DNA of 64,000 nt, from sequence record LC765218.1; one strand, given 5' to 3'. A program made the translations under genes and the position numbers. The notes under the pieces are model-generated. The model saw nothing but the letters and a program-made list of their open reading frames with translations. It searched no databases and was not told where the DNA came from. Positions 3,490-31,560 of this stretch are shown here, one piece after another (position 1 is the first letter of the stretch; each line of letters opens with the position of its first letter). The stretch is from Pseudomonas phage BRkr.

Positions 3490-4000
3490 GTCTAAGGAAC
3501 AGAAGAAAGCAGAAGCATTGGAACGTGCTCGTCATGCGTATCTGCGTGACAATCTTTACACCTTCTGCGGTTATATGCCTGGCGGTTCTCACTGGATTAT
3601 TGACGGTGATCCGAACGAACAACTTGAAGGGATGTTGGTCCAATGCAAATTGGTGATGGATAAGGTGAAAGAGCTCAAGCTCGAAAATCTGACTGCCAAC
3701 AAATCCATGTGGACCACCATGACAAGTTGGGATCCGCTGCATGTATTTACGTTCCTGATTGGACGTAAAGAAAATTTGTTGGAGTTGATCCGACAAATGC
3801 ATGATGCCCACTGCGCTGAAATGCCCGAGGGTGATCCGTGCCGCCGTGATCTTTACGGTAATGGTTTCGTTCGGGAAGAAGAACTGAATAAGTTCGTTAA
3901 ATGGTTGAAAGTAAGTCATCCGAAGTTCTTCACCACCTACAACTGGATGTCCTATAACGAAATTATCAAACCCGTCCAACCTAAAGTTACAACTGCTTAA
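3482..4000 (+). CDS. Hypothetical protein, 172 aa, N-terminus MAKSKEQKKAEALE.
   Basis: Same frame as track ORF 3419..4000. A GAGGGTT ribosome-binding site precedes ATGAAAATGGCT. The initiation region resembles the one at 5978. Confidence 0.5.
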   Translation: MAKSKEQKKAEALERARHAYLRDNLYTFCGYMPGGSHWIIDGDPNEQLEGMLVQCKLVMDKVKELKLENLTANKSMWTTMTSWDPLHVFTFLIGRKENLLELIRQMHDAHCAEMPEGDPCRRDLYGNGFVREEELNKFVKWLKVSHPKFFTTYNWMSYNEIIKPVQPKVTTA

Positions 4001-4026: not shown

Positions 4027-4482
4027 ATGCCTAAAGTTAATTCCATGCTCGAAAACAAACTCCGTGATCTGGCCAAGGACGAGCGTTACTACGCTGTGCT
4101 GACCGAACTGTTCCCGGCCATGATGCGTACCATGCCGTCTGGTCTGAACTACAAACCTGGTCGTGAAGGTGTTGTCGAGTTCCATCATCGCCTGGCTGAA
4201 CTGAATGACATCGTTCGTGAGATTGATGTCAGTTGGGGTGGTATGCCGATTGAAGACGAACCTTTCGTTAAATTGGCTACCATCGATTCTCTGGTGGTTC
4301 TTTCCACTCCGGCTGGTGTCCGTAAGTATGTTCACCAATGGCGTGATATCTGTAAAGCGCTGGAACTACCGGCAGACTCCGATGTATGGCGTGCACGTCA
4401 ACCTGAAGGGGTTGATATGAAATCTGTCTGGGCTGAGTTCCAGGAGGAACTCATTGCTTATCTACGCGAGGTAGTAGTCTAA
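4027..4482 (+). CDS. Hypothetical protein, 151 aa, paralog of the next gene.
   Basis: GAGGAAATAGAA-ATG ribosome-binding site. Shares the ENKLRDL...YYAVLTELFPAMMRTMPSGLNYK pattern with 4482..4943. Confidence 0.6.
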   Translation: MPKVNSMLENKLRDLAKDERYYAVLTELFPAMMRTMPSGLNYKPGREGVVEFHHRLAELNDIVREIDVSWGGMPIEDEPFVKLATIDSLVVLSTPAGVRKYVHQWRDICKALELPADSDVWRARQPEGVDMKSVWAEFQEELIAYLREVVV

Positions 4483-26904: not shown

Positions 26905-28752
26905 TTAAATTCCAAGACGATAGAACTTGTCTGTAATTGTATTATTACTGGCTCCAGTTAGACCACCGCCAACATATGCTGTGCCATTAATAAATCCACC
27001 ATAGCCATCATTCACACCGTTTGGTAGTTCTGGTAGTTTACGCCAAGTTCTCGATTGGATATTATACGCATTGGCTTTTCTACGTTTGTCTTCGTCAACA
27101 CCGCCAATGTATATAATTTCTTCATCGTTAGTCAGCATTACACCGTAACTGTTAACACCTGGCCCATCGGTAGTCGGTAGAGACTCCCATGCAAATGTAT
27201 TCATATTCATTCGATCAAATCGACCGGATTGCGAACCATTTACAAATCCACCATAGACATACATGTACTCGCCGACAACAACCGCTCTATGTGAAGATCG
27301 TTGGATACCACCTTGCGCGACTCGTTTTGACCACATGTTAGATGCAATATCGTAGACGAACAACGCGTCAGATTCATTATTCCCGCCAAGCAAATAGAGC
27401 TTACCATTATAATGAACCATCGTAGCTTGTGTTCTAAATACTGGATTAGATGAACCCGGAGAAGCGGGTGTAATAGCCGTCCAATCATTGGTCGCTACGT
27501 TATAACGCCAGAAATCCGCTGATTGGTTAGATCCACTGAATAGGTACATATGTGTATCATTTGCAGCTGCACACATATTGGCACGTGCACTCGGACTTAA
27601 ACCAGATCCAGTGAATAGACCGTTCCATGTATTAGTCTCAGGATTATATTTATTAAACGCGCCTCTATATGCACCTGTACTTGTATACCCGCCGAACATA
27701 TACAGTTCATCATCTATTACAACCGCAGTGGAACCTCGACTATCATAAGGTGCGTTTGCCATTACTTCCCATTCAGTTTTACTTGGAGGGATAGGAATAG
27801 TGAATTTATAGATAGCTGCTTTCGTTCTTTCAGGGGTGTTAAAAAGGGCATCATCGATAACAATGTCCGAACCACCGATCAGATACAGATCGCCATTCGA
27901 TGGATTTAATGCGACTGATGTCCCATGGACCTCACCAATATTCGTCTCAGTAACAACAAATTGTTTTTCGGCGATATAATAACGAACACAATGAATCTTA
28001 CCATCTTTAACGATAGTGTAGTTAAAAGTCCCGTTCCAGTACTTACCACCTTGATGACCACCGTGGTAGTCTGTAGAGTATGAATGGTACAATGTCCATG
28101 TATTAATAGCACCGGTGTATTTATAAACATCTTGGTTAACAACCCAACTGCCAGAGATGTTCTTCCATCCACCCATCACATAGAAATTCCCTTTATGGCA
28201 GAATGCATACGCTCCAGATAGAATAACAGGGCACCGGGCACTCATTACTTCTCGAACGTTATTCGATAGTCTATAGCGAATCAAAAGATCTGTTGCATGT
28301 TCCAGTACCCAAATAAATTCACCGCCATCCCAATCGCCGATACTGTTATAAGTGGATGTATTCATCAACTGATTACTAATAAGATTATCATTAGGTACAG
28401 TTGGATTGATCATCGTGATGACGTTTTGTGTCCAAGAAGCGCCACGACGCCCACCGAACATGTAAAGTCTATCGGATGTTGGAACAAATACACCCGCCGT
28501 ATGACAAAGTGAATAACTATTTTGGACAGCTGTTTTACTGATTTGAGTACCAGTGCTATCAAAAATTCTGATGTTATTATCAGTTGTACTTCTTGATGGG
28601 GCACCACTATTAATATTTAATAAACCATTTCTGAAATAGGGTACCGATCCAACCAATCCAACATCCAGTTGTCCAAACAATGTTGGTTGGTTATACGGTA
28701 TCATTTCCACTGGCTTAGCTTGCCCAGCAGCTGATAACAATAATTCAAACAT
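26905..28752 (-). CDS. Kelch-repeat beta-propeller protein, 615 aa, probably two propellers.
   Basis: N-terminus MFELLLSAAG. At least ten blade motifs (LYMFGG, FYVMGG, LYLIGG, LYMFGG, MYLFSG, LYLLGG, MYVYGG and others). The 45-nt 5' leader is conserved with gene 30471..31478. Confidence 0.75.
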   Translation of the reverse strand: MFELLLSAAGQAKPVEMIPYNQPTLFGQLDVGLVGSVPYFRNGLLNINSGAPSRSTTDNNIRIFDSTGTQISKTAVQNSYSLCHTAGVFVPTSDRLYMFGGRRGASWTQNVITMINPTVPNDNLISNQLMNTSTYNSIGDWDGGEFIWVLEHATDLLIRYRLSNNVREVMSARCPVILSGAYAFCHKGNFYVMGGWKNISGSWVVNQDVYKYTGAINTWTLYHSYSTDYHGGHQGGKYWNGTFNYTIVKDGKIHCVRYYIAEKQFVVTETNIGEVHGTSVALNPSNGDLYLIGGSDIVIDDALFNTPERTKAAIYKFTIPIPPSKTEWEVMANAPYDSRGSTAVVIDDELYMFGGYTSTGAYRGAFNKYNPETNTWNGLFTGSGLSPSARANMCAAANDTHMYLFSGSNQSADFWRYNVATNDWTAITPASPGSSNPVFRTQATMVHYNGKLYLLGGNNESDALFVYDIASNMWSKRVAQGGIQRSSHRAVVVGEYMYVYGGFVNGSQSGRFDRMNMNTFAWESLPTTDGPGVNSYGVMLTNDEEIIYIGGVDEDKRRKANAYNIQSRTWRKLPELPNGVNDGYGGFINGTAYVGGGLTGASNNTITDKFYRLGI

Positions 28753-28820
28753 GAGTATGCTCTCAAGTAAACCATTTAGTTCATAAGATAATCAGTTTGA
28801 ATAAGTTGTAGGATGTATTG

Positions 28821-29477
28821 CTATTTCGTTATGGTTAACTCAACTTTTAAATACGCTCCGGGACTTGGAGGGTCATTAGGTTCAATAACCCGGAACGTTA
28901 TCGTATCCCCATATTTTTCTTTAATAGCCGATTCGAACGCATATATCGAAACATATTTATTATCTACAAAAATGTCGAAGGTTAGAACTGGTGGAATTGT
29001 CCTATATTCAGGGCTGGCCGGTGCCATATTTTCAGTTAAATAGATTAATGCTTCAGTTACACGTGTATCAATTTGGTATAGTAAATCATCTAACATTTCT
29101 ATATTGGTTAATCGTCCAACATTTCTATCATCCTTAATTATTTTATCGGCCAACTGTTTAGGTACAGGTGATAAAATAACATGTTTTCCTTTATATGCTT
29201 CAGCATGAGGTAATGGATCTTCTATTAAAAATACATTAATAAATCCAAATCCATCATACTCAATATCGTGTGTAGATGTATTTATGCCTAGTGACAGTAC
29301 TCCCTCACGTAACATATAGCCTTTAGCTAACACCTCATATGAATCAAGTGTTCTATGATATTTTGATCCATCTTCTATATGAGGACCACCATGGGTTCTA
29401 TGTCCTACAGCATTTATAACCTTAACTTCCATAAGGTTACTGTCATCTAAAAACAGGCCTTTTGATCTATTCAACAT
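28821..29477 (-). CDS. Hypothetical protein, 218 aa, with a GHRTHGGPH motif. Possibly a metal-dependent hydrolase.
   Basis: Long minus-strand ORF between a Kelch gene and a tRNA fragment. Confidence 0.55.
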   Translation of the reverse strand: MLNRSKGLFLDDSNLMEVKVINAVGHRTHGGPHIEDGSKYHRTLDSYEVLAKGYMLREGVLSLGINTSTHDIEYDGFGFINVFLIEDPLPHAEAYKGKHVILSPVPKQLADKIIKDDRNVGRLTNIEMLDDLLYQIDTRVTEALIYLTENMAPASPEYRTIPPVLTFDIFVDNKYVSIYAFESAIKEKYGDTITFRVIEPNDPPSPGAYLKVELTITK

Positions 29478-29526
29478 TTTCAGTATCTCCTATAACTCCG
29501 ATATTGGAGTATAACATCACGGCATA

Positions 29527-29551
29527 AAAGAGTAGCCAATGGCTACTCTTT
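29527..29551 (-). terminator. Hairpin AAAGAGTAGCC-AAT-GGCTACTCTTT directly downstream of the tRNA 3' fragment. It is a duplicate of the 30214-30237 hairpin.
   Basis: 11-bp stem. A paralogous tRNA-plus-hairpin module. Confidence 0.5.
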
Positions 29552-29557
29552 TGAATT

Positions 29558-29590
29558 TGGCTCCGCGACCTGGACTCGAACCAGGGACCC
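29558..29590 (-). tRNA. A 3' tRNA fragment (variable loop, T-arm, acceptor 3' strand and GCCA). It pairs with the 5' fragment at 30341-30374.
   Basis: The reverse complement reads GGGTC-CCTGG-TTCGAGT-CCAGG-TCGCGGA-G-CCA. The acceptor 3' strand TCGCGGA is perfectly complementary to TCCGCGA at the start of the 5' fragment. Confidence 0.5.
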
Positions 29591-29603
29591 AGTATATTTT
29601 TTT

Positions 29604-30161
29604 TTATTGTGTGGGGACCAAGGTGCTAATACCCCCATTAGCACCGACCCTAATAAACCTAGCCGGAATATTGATCTTGTATGCTCGGCACCATTTACGA
29701 ATAGCGTTATCGGATACTCCATACTTCTCTCCTATTTTTACAAGTGATAGCAATGTAACATCGAGGGCAAGTTGTTCTTTGGATGGTCGATCCACCTTAC
29801 GACGACCTTTGGCTGAACACTCGGGGCTACAGAATGTTATCAGTCGGTGACTAATGACAATACCACAGCCAGCACAAAGCTTAGTTGGATAGTTCCTAGG
29901 ATCAATACCGAGCCGTTTCATCCAACCATGTAACTTCATGTGTTGTGACTGAGGGAGAATCAATAAGTTCTCTGGATGGTTGTTAAGCTTATTCTCATCC
30001 AGATGATGAACTTCCTCGTCATCGTAAAGTGGTCTACCTAATGTGTCTTCTCCAACCACTCGATGTTCGTAAACCCATCCAAACATTTTAGGGTTAGCTA
30101 TGGCTTGACGATGTTCGGGTAAATATAATGCCCTATAGCCGTTAATTATTTTCTCTTTCAT
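29604..30161 (-). CDS. HNH homing endonuclease, 185 aa, paralog of 21337..21900. It lies between the two halves of a split tRNA gene.
   Basis: HNH motif EVHHLDENKLNNHPENLLILPQSQHMKLH, a Cys cluster, and a basic C-terminal tail. Confidence 0.8.
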   Translation of the reverse strand: MKEKIINGYRALYLPEHRQAIANPKMFGWVYEHRVVGEDTLGRPLYDDEEVHHLDENKLNNHPENLLILPQSQHMKLHGWMKRLGIDPRNYPTKLCAGCGIVISHRLITFCSPECSAKGRRKVDRPSKEQLALDVTLLSLVKIGEKYGVSDNAIRKWCRAYKINIPARFIRVGANGGISTLVPTQ

Positions 30162-30213
30162 ATCGAACCTAGGATATATAAATAGATCGCTAGTTCGATC
30201 TATGTGACGGAAT

Positions 30214-30237
30214 AAAGAGTAGCCGGAGCTACTCTTT
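30214..30237 (-). terminator. Hairpin AAAGAGTAGC-CGGA-GCTACTCTTT directly downstream of the GTT tRNA.
   Basis: 10-bp stem. Homologous to 29527-29551. Confidence 0.5.
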
Positions 30238-30242
30238 GAAAT

Positions 30243-30329
30243 TGGCTGGTAAGGTAGGATTCGAACCTACGATGGGCTTTCGCCAACGGATTAACAGTCC
30301 GCCCCCTGCTACCGCTCGGGTACTTACCA
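30243..30329 (-). tRNA. Atypical tRNA, 87 nt. It has a long Ser-like variable arm but anticodon GTT, which would read Asn codons.
   Basis: Acceptor TGGTAAG/CTTACCA (7/7), D-arm CCC-GAGCGGTAGCA-GGG, anticodon stem-loop GCGGA-CTGTTAA-TCCGT, variable arm TGGCGAAAGCCCATC, T-arm GTAGG-TTCGAAT-CCTAC, and a GCCA end. Confidence 0.6.
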
Positions 30330-30340
30330 AGAAAACTATC

Positions 30341-30374
30341 CAGTCGCTTGCTCTACCGACTGAGCTATCGCGGA
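30341..30374 (-). tRNA. A 5' tRNA fragment (acceptor 5' strand, D-arm and anticodon 5' stem). It pairs with the 3' fragment at 29558-29590.
   Basis: The reverse complement reads TCCGCGA-TA-GCTC-AGTCGGTA-GAGC-A-AGCGA-CTG. No matching anticodon 3' stem (TCGCT) occurs anywhere between the fragments. Confidence 0.5.
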
Positions 30375-30470
30375 AGAATTATTAACAACTTCTTTCTTGT
30401 AGAAAAATCACAAGTAACTGAATTACAGTATTTCACTACATATTATTACAATCTGAGTTAGATAGTTATT

Positions 30471-31478
30471 TTAATCAATGGCTAATGGTGCTAGTTTTAC
30501 CTGATAGATACCTGATAACAATTGGCTTTTTAACATATATGCTCCACCACCAACTGGCATTTTAGATCCACCTGCAATGATCATGCTATTATCTGGTCCT
30601 TTGGCTATAGATGAAATATTAAGGAATCCAATACCTAGTTCAAATGGTTCAGCCCATTTCCGGCGCCTAATATTAAAACGCTGTGCAAACATTTTAGTTA
30701 CACCGCCGACATCAACTGCATTAAGGTAATTAAAATATTCCCCATCTACATAACCATTACCTTGCCATATTGTTGCTTTGTCAGCAGGTATTATTAGCCA
30801 TGGTGTTAGTTCCCATACAAGTGTAGTAACATTGTATCTATAGACTTCTAAGTTTGGTATGTTCTTAGTATTATCCCAGCCACCAAAATGGTAGAAATAA
30901 CCATTATAATAAAATAATTGTTGACCTGACCTAGGTCCACCGCTATAGTCTTGACCGCCGAGCCAGTTCTTAGTCGATGGTTTTAATCGCATGGCGTTTG
31001 TACCAACTGGATTAACACACATAATAAGATCATTGCCATCAGACGCTGACGCAGTTCCCCATAATGCACCAGGACCACTATAACGCTCAACGCGACTACC
31101 TGTGCTTATATCAAAATGTTGTATAAAGTTAGAAGTACCTGTACCCCCATCACCTGCTGCGTTCCATCCAGTAATACCACCATAAACAATAAAGTTATTT
31201 TTATGTAATGTACCAAATCCAAGTGATACACCCGGTAAAAATGTACCAGATGCTGTTGCGCTTATCTCTGTAAATGGGTTTATAGTGAACCGTCTGAAAA
31301 CAGTTGCTGCTGATTGTCCTTCCGTATGATGTCCGGATCCAACATATAACGTATTTCCATCTACGTACGACATCGTACCTGCCAATGCTACCGGTAGGTC
31401 ACCTAATTTTATAATTTCACTAAATCCAACCAAGGGTGTTTCATCGCCTAAACCTGATGATAATAGTAATTCAAACAT
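30471..31478 (-). CDS. Kelch-repeat beta-propeller protein, 335 aa.
   Basis: N-terminus MFELLLSSGLG. Blade motifs LYVGSG, FIVYGG, FYHFGG. The 5' leader is conserved with gene 26905..28752. Confidence 0.75.
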   Translation of the reverse strand: MFELLLSSGLGDETPLVGFSEIIKLGDLPVALAGTMSYVDGNTLYVGSGHHTEGQSAATVFRRFTINPFTEISATASGTFLPGVSLGFGTLHKNNFIVYGGITGWNAAGDGGTGTSNFIQHFDISTGSRVERYSGPGALWGTASASDGNDLIMCVNPVGTNAMRLKPSTKNWLGGQDYSGGPRSGQQLFYYNGYFYHFGGWDNTKNIPNLEVYRYNVTTLVWELTPWLIIPADKATIWQGNGYVDGEYFNYLNAVDVGGVTKMFAQRFNIRRRKWAEPFELGIGFLNISSIAKGPDNSMIIAGGSKMPVGGGAYMLKSQLLSGIYQVKLAPLAID

Positions 31479-31560
31479 GAGTGTGCTCTCAAGTAAATCA
31501 TTTTAGATCATAGGATAACCTTTGCGGCTCAGATATTTATTTTATTATAATAGACAGCAT

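Follow-up and report, generated by a model that had tools for sequence, protein, structure and literature searches.

The window analysed here is the whole stretch of 64,000 nucleotides (nt) in sequence record LC765218.1, from Pseudomonas phage BRkr, a phiKZ-like jumbo phage of Pseudomonas whose closest relatives are PA1C, phiLBG22 and phiHQ (99-100% identity). Its minus strand contains two fragments of a tRNA-Asn gene and, between them, a complete second tRNA-Asn and a gene for a putative homing endonuclease of the HNH type; the RefSeq annotation of the locus has the inner tRNA and the HNH gene only. The 5' fragment (30341..30374, minus strand; TCCGCGA-TA-GCTC-AGTCGGTA-GAGC-A-AGCGA-CTG) was recognised by reading the sequence and represents positions 1-34 of a host-type class-I tRNA-Asn(GTT), namely the acceptor 5' strand, the D-arm, the 5' strand of the anticodon stem and C32 U33 G34; the intact genes of comparison loci L001, L002 (phiKZ) and L008 have its homologue in their own positions 1-34. 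The 3' fragment (29558..29590, minus strand; GGGTC-CCTGG-TTCGAGT-CCAGG-TCGCGGA-G-CCA), recognised in the same way, represents positions 44-76 of the same tRNA, with the variable loop, the T-arm, the acceptor 3' strand, G73 and CCA, and its T-loop, TTCGAGT, is of the type found at locus A of phiKZ. An earlier note on this DNA had described both fragments, a complementarity of 7 base pairs (bp) between their acceptor strands and a gap of about 750 nt, and all of this holds: the strands pair at 7/7 positions and the gap is exactly 750 nt (29591-30340). In shuffled sequence the number of chance matches expected is 0 for the 22-nt core of the fragments and 0 for the 24-nt core. A scan of bacterial genomes gave identities to chromosomal Pseudomonas tRNA-Asn of 33/33 for the 3' fragment and 32/34 for the 5' fragment, the consensus of the chromosomal tRNA-Asn(GTT) being TCCG[C/T]GATAGCTCAGTCGGTAGAGCAAATGACTGTTAATCATTGGGTCCCTGGTTCGAGTCCAGGTC[G/A]CGGAGCCA. 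We identify the two fragments as pieces of one ordinary host-type class-I tRNA-Asn(GTT) gene.

The nested tRNA was called by ARAGORN as an 87-nt tRNA-Asn(GTT) at 30243..30329 (minus strand; 54.2 bits with the Rfam tRNA model). It is complete, as the earlier note had it, but no ordinary tRNA-Asn, since its variable arm is long and class-II-like (GGC-GAAA-GCC); the D-stem has 3 bp. From tRNA-Asn it retains the U1-A72 pair, G73 and an anticodon loop that reads CUGUUAA, and its CCA is encoded. Folding within its own sequence context gives the cloverleaf. Related tRNAs are present in Pseudomonas phage Y1-MI, in Proteus phage Stubb (T5-like) and in Escherichia phage EscoHU1, and in the family alignment (A2, six phage sequences) 23 of 23 pairs are 100% paired, 12 of them with compensatory changes; all three pairs of the extra arm covary across the six phages, which gives the family a class II structure. 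Bacterial class II tRNAs have the identities Leu, Ser or Tyr, and in this respect the nested tRNA departs from the class, with the anticodon GTT in all six members. G73 is also present in 6/6, and U1-A72 in the four members from Pseudomonas phages, as in class-I tRNA-Asn. Because anticodon, G73 and U1-A72 match class-I tRNA-Asn, an Asn identity is expected. The nested tRNA is the only tRNA-Asn called by ARAGORN in the window, and two BLAST surveys gave no intact class-I tRNA-Asn for the PA1C clade or Psa21 among the matches listed; it is presumed to be the working tRNA-Asn of this phage. Judged by its fold and its alignment, it is structurally sound and evolutionarily constrained. An exact-pattern search of IMG/VR for it gave 0 matches. 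Regarding other long-arm versions of tRNAs that are normally class I, a 90-nt Lys(CTT) is found in Caulobacter phage CcrColossus (L135 300-389), and Asn(GTT) forms of 83-85 nt in the T5-like phages EscoHU1 (L134 280-362) and Stubb (L006 1500-1584). In Y1-MI (L005 1600-1680) the long-arm tRNA-Asn is followed by a T-arm/acceptor fragment and then by a tRNA 5' fragment.

The HNH gene (29604..30161, minus strand), already noted as a 185-amino-acid (aa) HNH reading frame between the halves, is confirmed as a homing-endonuclease gene by Pfam HNH_3 (E 1.3e-10) and by PHROG 15471, 'HNH endonuclease' (E 5.5e-53). The protein has an N-terminal HNH_3 domain, a zinc-ribbon-like linker (CxxC...CxxxC) and a C-terminal helix-turn-helix-like module (...RPSKEQL...IGEKYGVSDNAIRKWC...); Pfam has no match for the C-terminal module of the window protein, and phmmer against PDB sequences gave nothing at E<=1, so a supposed resemblance to I-HmuI was dropped. 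The differences between the window and phiKZ genes fall at codon positions 1/2/3 as 14/12/70, indicating purifying selection. Close homologues found by tblastn are limited to the PA1C clade, ten phiKZ-type records and Psa21, and distant ones are in Bacillus, Salmonella and Vibrio phages. Among the matches listed, 16 records of Pseudomonas jumbo phages have the gene, and most Phikzvirus genomes lack it. All phiKZ-type records examined have an extra A in an A-run that puts the ATG out of frame (+1), with a TGA before the HNH frame (L002 2905-2925 in phiKZ; L131 and L132 at 3905-3925), and as a result the annotated PHIKZ296 starts at an internal Met. Each half of the arrangement ends in a similar structure: hairpin 1 (AAAGAGTAGC-CGGA-GCTACTCTTT, 10-bp stem, 30214..30237) stands directly after the nested tRNA as a terminator-like module end, and hairpin 2 (AAAAGAGTAGCCA-T-TGGCTACTCTTTT, 13-bp arms, 29526..29552) after the 3' fragment, so that the AAAGAGTAGC...GCTACTCTTT hairpin is present twice, in agreement with the duplicated tRNA-plus-terminator modules proposed before. 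Hairpin 2 also trails the intact tRNA-Asn at locus A of phiKZ, PaSz-1 and FBPa36, which identifies it as the native terminator-like hairpin of the tRNA-Asn module.

The phiKZ-like phages have at most two class-I tRNA-Asn loci, about 2 kb apart. Locus A adjoins a tRNA-Asp, upstream of the PHIKZ298 homologue, and locus B lies downstream of PHIKZ297. Both are intact in PaSz-1, and locus B is intact in fMGyn-Pae01, the gene having 76 nt; in phiKZ locus A is intact and locus B is interrupted. Relatives that lack the HNH gene have an intact tRNA-Asn(GTT) at the same locus (L001 3686-3761; L008 ~4187-4264), so that the comparison suggested earlier for recovering the ancestral gene does recover it, and a BLAST survey found at least 37 Phikzvirus records with an intact class-I gene among the matches listed. 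The insert consists, from 5' to 3', of a short linker, the 87-nt long-variable-arm tRNA-Asn(GTT), a hairpin and the HNH_3 endonuclease gene, and is homologous throughout in the window, phiKZ and the more distant Psa21 (alignment A1). Across 5 kb, phiKZ and PaSz-1 are ~99.5% identical except for a 774-nt insertion and one substitution (position 28), which is 8 nt from the junction and is the only flanking difference near the site. The anticodon loop was entered between positions 35 and 38, a TA dinucleotide blurring the exact point of insertion. In phiKZ the 5' piece and the 3' piece complement each other exactly as parts of a single gene; they overlap by 2 nt, their flanks are otherwise identical, and when joined in silico they are called as tRNA-Asn(GTT) by ARAGORN. 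The clean difference between phiKZ and PaSz-1, together with this call, means that one gene was split by one insertion. Two independently truncated tRNA copies were rejected as the origin of the halves, given how exactly the phiKZ pieces complement each other within flanks that otherwise match the intact allele. A transposon origin, prompted by the TA at both phiKZ junctions, was also rejected, as terminal inverted repeats and a transposase are both absent.

In the window the split gene has decayed further. The 5' junction is CTGGATAGTTTTCT where phiKZ has CTGTTACGATTTCAT, and the stretch GATAGTTTTCT (30330..30340, minus strand) aligns in A1 with positions 35-37 plus the phiKZ linker CGATTTCAT. 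On the other side, the spacer past the HNH stop codon (29591..29603, minus strand) bears the scar of a 33-nt deletion at a microhomology (ACT...ACT; alignment A1 columns 879-911 against L002 3455-3505): the 33 nt kept in phiKZ are gone from between two ACT triplets, and the lost stretch ends in positions 38-40. The ACT that remains may be positions 41-43. This deletion explains why the 3' strand of the anticodon stem could not be found in the window, as the earlier note had observed. The joined window halves give no ARAGORN call; since the deletion and the junction changes have destroyed the anticodon arm, no functional tRNA can be rebuilt from them, and the suggestion of a tRNA that is split and reassembled finds no support in the window. 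Among relatives the 5' relic occurs in the variants AAATGACTGTTA, AAATGGCTGTTA, AAGTGACTTTTA and AAGCGACTGGATA, with lesions within positions 27-37 at 28 in phiKZ, 28 and 31 in 6B and 124.01, and 34 in fMGyn and T2P; in all, four lineages have differing point changes at 27-37. In Psa21 the 5' relic is degraded, and the sequence downstream of the HNH gene showed no 3' half. The same left junction (…TTACGATTTCAT-TGGTAAG…) is found at locus A of fMGyn-Pae01, T2P and relatives, and thus at two tRNA-Asn loci; there the native hairpin comes immediately after the 5' half and nested tRNA, the HNH gene and 3' half being absent. Such a form would be produced by recombination of the two hairpin copies, or by repair with the 5' half and the hairpin as arms. 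From the distribution of these changes, the window halves are a decaying relic in which loss is concentrated in the anticodon arm. The G57T change in the T-loop of the phiKZ 3' half was considered as decay and rejected, being shared with the intact PaSz-1 allele. Elsewhere in the region, phage 124.01 (L131 ~1660-1680) has lost the locus-A module of tRNA-Asp and tRNA-Asn up to the 3' side of the hairpin, leaving the nested long-arm tRNA as its sole tRNA-Asn there; HPP-Temi (L007 2925-3010) has tRNA debris, including the 5'-fragment-like GCGGGTAGCTCAG, beside its tRNA-Asn module; and Psa21 (L004 2080-2244) has weak tRNA-like matches of 19-23 bits near its own.

In order to place the endonuclease, relatives of the HNH protein or of its C-terminal module were examined in IMG/VR, where 79 of the 80 loci encoding them lie in tRNA arrays (tRNAs within 2.5 kb, mostly on the same strand). 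The part common to these relatives is the zinc-ribbon plus helix-turn-helix-like module (…RPSREEL..LIR..F..IG..YGVSDNAIRKWC..Y.LP), which is fused to HNH_3, to other HNH heads (L156, L165), to GIY-YIG (L146, L152, L187) or to PD-(D/E)xK heads (L164, L191), or stands alone (L137-L216). About a dozen of the endonuclease open reading frames (ORFs) sit inside tRNA genes split at the anticodon loop, including Lys(UUU), Pro(UGG), Arg(UCG), Thr(UGU) and others (L137, L139, L162, L164, L166, L168, L169, L170, L178, L179, L191, L205/L208/L211 and L210). The non-coding flanks in these split genes are just 12-130 nt, and the joined exons score as good tRNAs; an Rfam scan of six IMG/VR loci in E-value mode revealed neither a group I/II intron nor a ribozyme within the inserts. 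In several cases the ORF has degenerated while the exons are still intact. The closest IMG/VR relative of the window protein, L137 (43% identity), is itself inside a split tRNA. The habit of living within tRNA genes is not universal: the homologue of Vibrio phage 11895-B1 has no tRNAs nearby, and that of Bacillus phage PBC2 lies between tRNAs, not inside one.

The inserts at some of these loci have structures of their own. In L137 (501-1102), L162, L168, L169 and L170 the insert ends form a tRNA-like fold, the 5' end providing a 7-nt acceptor strand and a D-arm-like TAGTTTAATGAAAAA, and the 3' end a T-arm (AAGTTCAAATCTTAT), the 7 nt that pair with that strand, a discriminator and CCA; a hairpin in L137 contains a Shine-Dalgarno sequence and AUG. 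Such tRNA-like ends could serve the endonuclease message as a natural tRNA scaffold. Elements in tRNA-Pro(UGG) (L164 1937-2814, L191 1937-2841, also L178) have an insert whose 3' end base-pairs with the anticodon loop together with its own 5' end, so that the anticodon stem gains more than 20 bp (z against shuffles -5.3 and -5.8). A full-length ROOL RNA (320 bits) lies within the phage tRNA array of L178 (3379-3968), and a sub-threshold twister-P1 match (46 bits; gathering score 67) near tRNAs in L162 (903-954).

The explanation that we favour, and consider probable, is that a mobile cassette of ~0.75 kb (linker, long-arm tRNA-Asn, hairpin and free-standing HNH gene) split a host-type class-I tRNA-Asn(GTT) in its anticodon loop, and that the two halves are its remains. 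This accords with the earlier proposal of a tRNA disrupted by a homing-endonuclease cassette, which the empty sites in relatives and the 774-nt difference between phiKZ and PaSz-1 bear out. The element has what a homing cassette would be expected to have: a recognised nuclease domain, a clean presence/absence polymorphism in phiKZ vs PaSz-1, and an endonuclease family associated with tRNA genes. By analogy with T4 SegB and the HNH genes of the T5 tRNA region, the enzyme would cut cassette-free tRNA-Asn genes, and the break would be repaired from a cassette-bearing genome, with the tRNA halves or the duplicated hairpin as homology arms; repair would spread the endonuclease together with its tRNA cargo. 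The nested tRNA would make up for the destroyed gene and may also be selected cargo, as a variant insensitive to tRNA-targeting defence nucleases. The 5' fragment would now be simply a transcribed leader before the nested tRNA, and the 3' fragment a 3' trailer of the HNH gene. The intact HNH frame occurs in the window type and Psa21, both without a detected class-I tRNA-Asn; this, and the frameshifted HNH beside an intact locus A, fits an enzyme that cuts class-I tRNA-Asn, short of proving it.

Several points weigh against the cassette explanation. Identity between the window and phiKZ is 68% in the upstream DNA, 96% at positions 1-26 of the 5' fragment, 58% at positions 27-34 plus linker, 95% in the nested tRNA, 82% in the hairpin and spacer, 83% in the HNH gene and 88% in the 3' fragment. 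Positions 1-26 are therefore conserved like the working nested tRNA, against 58-68% in flanking non-coding DNA, and a retained function could account for this; the conservation could also be explained by invasion of tRNA genes that were already conserved, or by gene conversion from host or phage copies. In addition, most phiKZ-type genomes keep an intact class-I tRNA-Asn at locus A, near the cassette; the loss of the ATG from their HNH frame by the +1 frameshift agrees with an inactive enzyme without proving it. The explanation also calls for a first route of entry into the anticodon loop; a TA dinucleotide stands at both phiKZ junctions. Finally, we infer the target of the HNH protein solely from the location of the cassette, and homing is putative.

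Among the alternatives, the one that survives best is that the halves are retained for a role other than decoding, either as a tRNA-like scaffold or processing signal (RNase P, 3'-end processing, stability) or as homology arms or recognition context for the cassette. The greater conservation of positions 1-26 and 44-76 than of the anticodon remnant with linker and the upstream DNA points this way, as does the single acceptor difference, which is compensated (C5-G68 in the window, T5-A68 in phiKZ). Both variants are, however, known chromosomal alleles of Pseudomonas tRNA-Asn, so that the apparent compensatory change alone is no proof of selection on the split gene, and the covariation may predate the insertion. 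IMG/VR relatives regularly frame the ORF with an acceptor/D-arm 5' piece and a T-arm/acceptor/CCA 3' piece, and some of their intron ends lengthen the anticodon stem by at least 20 bp; in the window, on the other hand, processing of the nested tRNA would sever the 5' fragment from the HNH message. Moreover, the fMGyn/T2P group retains the 5' fragment without a 3' partner, no 3' half was seen in Psa21, and conservation of the exons is expected under repeated invasion of working tRNA genes or conversion from host copies. On this balance we regard a retained role as rather improbable.

It is very unlikely that ordinary recombination among repeated tRNA-plus-terminator modules produced the arrangement, with the HNH gene as a passenger that never targeted tRNA-Asn. 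The region is certainly a mosaic, with its two tRNA-Asn loci ~2 kb apart and its duplicated hairpins; whole modules are deleted in phage 124.01, tRNA debris is present in HPP-Temi and Psa21, and the window joins locus-B upstream sequence to a locus-A-type 3' half and hairpin. The phiKZ-type HNH frame has no start codon, and the homologous gene of PBC2 lies between tRNA genes. But two independent truncations would not yield the exact complementarity of the phiKZ pieces, with their 2-nt overlap and identical flanks; the endonuclease family occupies tRNA arrays at nearly all loci surveyed and is found repeatedly inside the anticodon loops of unrelated tRNAs; and the HNH gene has been under purifying selection.

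Intron models were scanned with Rfam in E-value mode at E<=10 over window positions 28500-31500, phiKZ (L002) and Psa21 (L004), and returned zero matches to group I/II introns, only tRNAs and noise, in agreement with the earlier note, which saw no clean group I intron here. With its intron options on (0-1200 nt, relaxed thresholds), ARAGORN found no split tRNA in the window or phiKZ, with spurious calls only, at -ps80, so that neither of the scans that had been proposed turned up an intron or a split tRNA. The omega-G of a 3' splice site is missing, the possible phiKZ junctions 35/36, 36/37 and 37/38 being preceded by A, T or A; from the window the 3' junction itself has been deleted. No complementary leader and trailer sequences were seen at the window halves. 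That the interrupted gene still works, with the 750-nt insert as a group I or other intron and the halves joined into a mature tRNA-Asn, is scarcely credible: the insertion is in the anticodon loop, as in bacterial tRNA group I introns including those of tRNA-Asn at 35/36 in Patescibacteria (PMC13011429), the acceptor strands still pair and the joined phiKZ halves are a recognisable tRNA-Asn, but no intron model matches, the base before the 3' exon is never G in phiKZ, the non-coding space is taken up by a genuine tRNA and by hairpins so that a ribozyme core would not fit, positions 38-40 are gone from the window and 35-37 altered in it, and the 3' half is wholly lost in relatives. As far as the sequence can tell, a spliced or rejoined tRNA is excluded for the window, where the anticodon arm is incomplete, and unlikely for phiKZ, where the intron signature is lacking.

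A homing endonuclease in a phage tRNA cluster is an already known kind of element. One example is T4 SegB, a GIY-YIG homing endonuclease whose free-standing gene lies among the tRNA genes clustered in T4; the site it recognises contains a conserved tRNA motif (T-psi-C), and SegB homologues show a statistical association with tRNAs (PMC2330249; PMC13096335). Like SegB, the window enzyme is encoded by a free-standing gene among phage tRNA genes that is absent from close relatives, and SegB spreads itself plus neighbouring tRNA genes. Unlike it, the window protein has an HNH_3 domain and its cassette is inside a tRNA gene, which it inactivates with an isoacceptor replacement aboard, whereas SegB lies between tRNA genes; cleavage and homing are demonstrated for SegB and putative for the window cassette. 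The idea that the C-terminal module of the window protein is that of SegB was rejected, as T4 is not among the tblastn matches in phages. The T5 tRNA region (hegA-E / F-Tfl, NC_005859) similarly has HNH genes interspersed with tRNA genes, pseudogenes and tRNA-like stable RNAs, several heg ORFs overlapping tRNA ends. However, no heg gene is among the tblastn matches of the window HNH at E<=1e-8, the tRNA-Asn of T5 is an ordinary class-I tRNA, and the T5 annotation shows no isoacceptor nested in a split tRNA.

Some tRNA group I introns carry homing endonucleases, as does the I-Ssp6803I intron of cyanobacterial tRNA-fMet. The window locus resembles such introns in the interruption of a tRNA-Asn in the anticodon loop at or beside 35/36, in the endonuclease ORF inside, and in an outer gene that standard finders miss, and differs in that the insert has no ribozyme (no Rfam match, no terminal G, no room for a core) and holds a complete tRNA gene, and that splicing cannot restore the window copy. 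Split and permuted tRNAs of Nanoarchaeum and some algae are joined at a bulge-helix-bulge by the archaeal/eukaryotic splicing endonuclease and a ligase, their halves being complete to the anticodon loop. They share with the window halves that are apart in the genome and complementary acceptor strands; the window halves, in contrast, are on the same strand ~750 nt apart, with an incomplete anticodon arm (positions 38-40 absent, 35-37 altered) and decay across relatives. In bacteria, group I introns are found in the anticodon loops of Patescibacteria tRNA-Asn and tRNA-Asp at 35/36 (PMC13011429).

Regarding the cargo, long-arm tRNA-Asn(GTT) genes were found within arrays at four metagenome loci, L218 (a 1.86-Mb contig), L220, L221 and L222, and in 3/4 of these the arrays are on contigs of 0.5-1.9 Mb. 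The arrays hold Asn(GTT), Thr(TGT/GGT/CGT), Met and Lys(TTT) tRNAs only. The PARIS effector AriB cuts tRNAs, its toxicity is relieved by phage T5 tRNA variants (PMC12409363), and the T5 tRNA-Lys/Thr/Asn variants bypass it (PMC12409363; PMC11464382). The nested tRNA is like these in having an AriB-target anticodon, Asn(GUU), on a body very unlike the host tRNA, and in belonging to a family that is also present in Asn/Thr/Met/Lys arrays. It is unlike them in that no defence is known against Pseudomonas tRNA-Asn in such a setting, resistance of the long-arm form being hypothetical, and in that the T5 tRNA-Asn is outside the long-arm family: the possibility that the PARIS-bypassing tRNA-Asn of T5 is of the long-arm type was rejected, as it is a 78-nt class-I tRNA. 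As a lead only, the resemblance of the Asn/Thr/Met/Lys set to the AriB target set suggests that the nested tRNA is useful cargo. We tentatively extend the cassette explanation to a joint reading, which as a whole is possible rather than likely: the cassette would be a self-compensating replacement element, whose HNH enzyme cuts the host-type tRNA-Asn of rival phages, and perhaps of the host, so that repair installs a defence-escaping long-arm tRNA, and the enzyme would belong to a large guild of endonucleases, so far undescribed. In this guild HNH, GIY-YIG and PD-(D/E)xK heads may share the zinc-ribbon plus helix-turn-helix module for binding tRNA genes; its members may be ribozyme-free dwellers of anticodon loops whose message is processed on a natural scaffold formed by the split tRNA or by a nested tRNA-like fold, and in some elements the outer tRNA might be rejoined in a protein-dependent manner.

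What is new at this locus is the combination of a ribozyme-free insertion in an anticodon loop, a carried isoacceptor of unusual architecture and a common DNA-binding module associated with tRNA genes; searches of the literature on phiKZ tRNA-Asn, on gp296/PHIKZ296 and on tRNA-like introns with endonucleases turned up no account of the split gene. If the cassette explanation is right, it accounts for an unannotated feature of phiKZ and its kin, the model nucleus-forming jumbo phages, in that a homing endonuclease would have disabled one of their tRNA-Asn genes, and the unusual 87-nt tRNA-Asn that the annotation lists in phiKZ-like phages would have come as cargo of the endonuclease element. 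A homing endonuclease would here sit directly in a tRNA anticodon loop without a self-splicing intron, the cost being offset by the isoacceptor, which extends the endonuclease-driven tRNA traffic of SegB and T5. The co-occurrence of the cargo tRNA family with Thr, Lys and Met variants offers a testable tie to tRNA-targeting antiphage defence. The conserved module of three nuclease classes appears to mark endonucleases that dwell in tRNA genes in many uncultured phages, where about a dozen split tRNA genes are overlooked by default settings of tRNA finders.

Other features of the region concern expression and rearrangement. A further 8-bp hairpin with a T-rich tail (ATAGATCG-AACTAG-CGATCTAT; 30182..30203, minus strand) was found upstream of the HNH start by a scan for terminator-like structures and a repeat search. 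The sequence before the HNH ATG (30162-30179, CCTAGGTTCGAT-ATG) resembles the 5' strand of a T-arm plus T-loop, with the T-arm-like CCTAGGTTCGA, and is partly complementary to the upstream hairpin region; a hairpin sequestering the HNH start codon was rejected, the fold not being significant (z -0.78). The GGGGGT-type hairpin reported earlier does exist (GGTGCTAAT...ATTAGCACC, 29622-29645), but it is inside the HNH coding region, and the A-run given as ten is nine long; given this position and the weaker form of the hairpin in phiKZ, a terminator function is improbable. The motif GATTGTAATAATATGTAG (30436..30453, minus strand), some 60 nt ahead of the 5' fragment, is conserved in phiKZ, against 68% identity for the remaining upstream region, and motifs like TGTA(A/T)AATA(C)TATGTA precede the tRNA-Asp/Asn module in L001 and L002 and the tRNA-Asn of Phabio. 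This TATG-containing motif is likely the promoter of the tRNA module; expression of phiKZ tRNAs requires the non-virion RNA polymerase (PMC12571901). Two Kelch-repeat paralogues (PHIKZ298-like, both beginning MFELLLS) flank the cassette region at 26905-28752 and 30471-31478 (minus strand), and these paralogues, together with the mixed locus-A and locus-B features, suggest that this genome region was remodelled by recombination of tRNA-Asn copies with one another.

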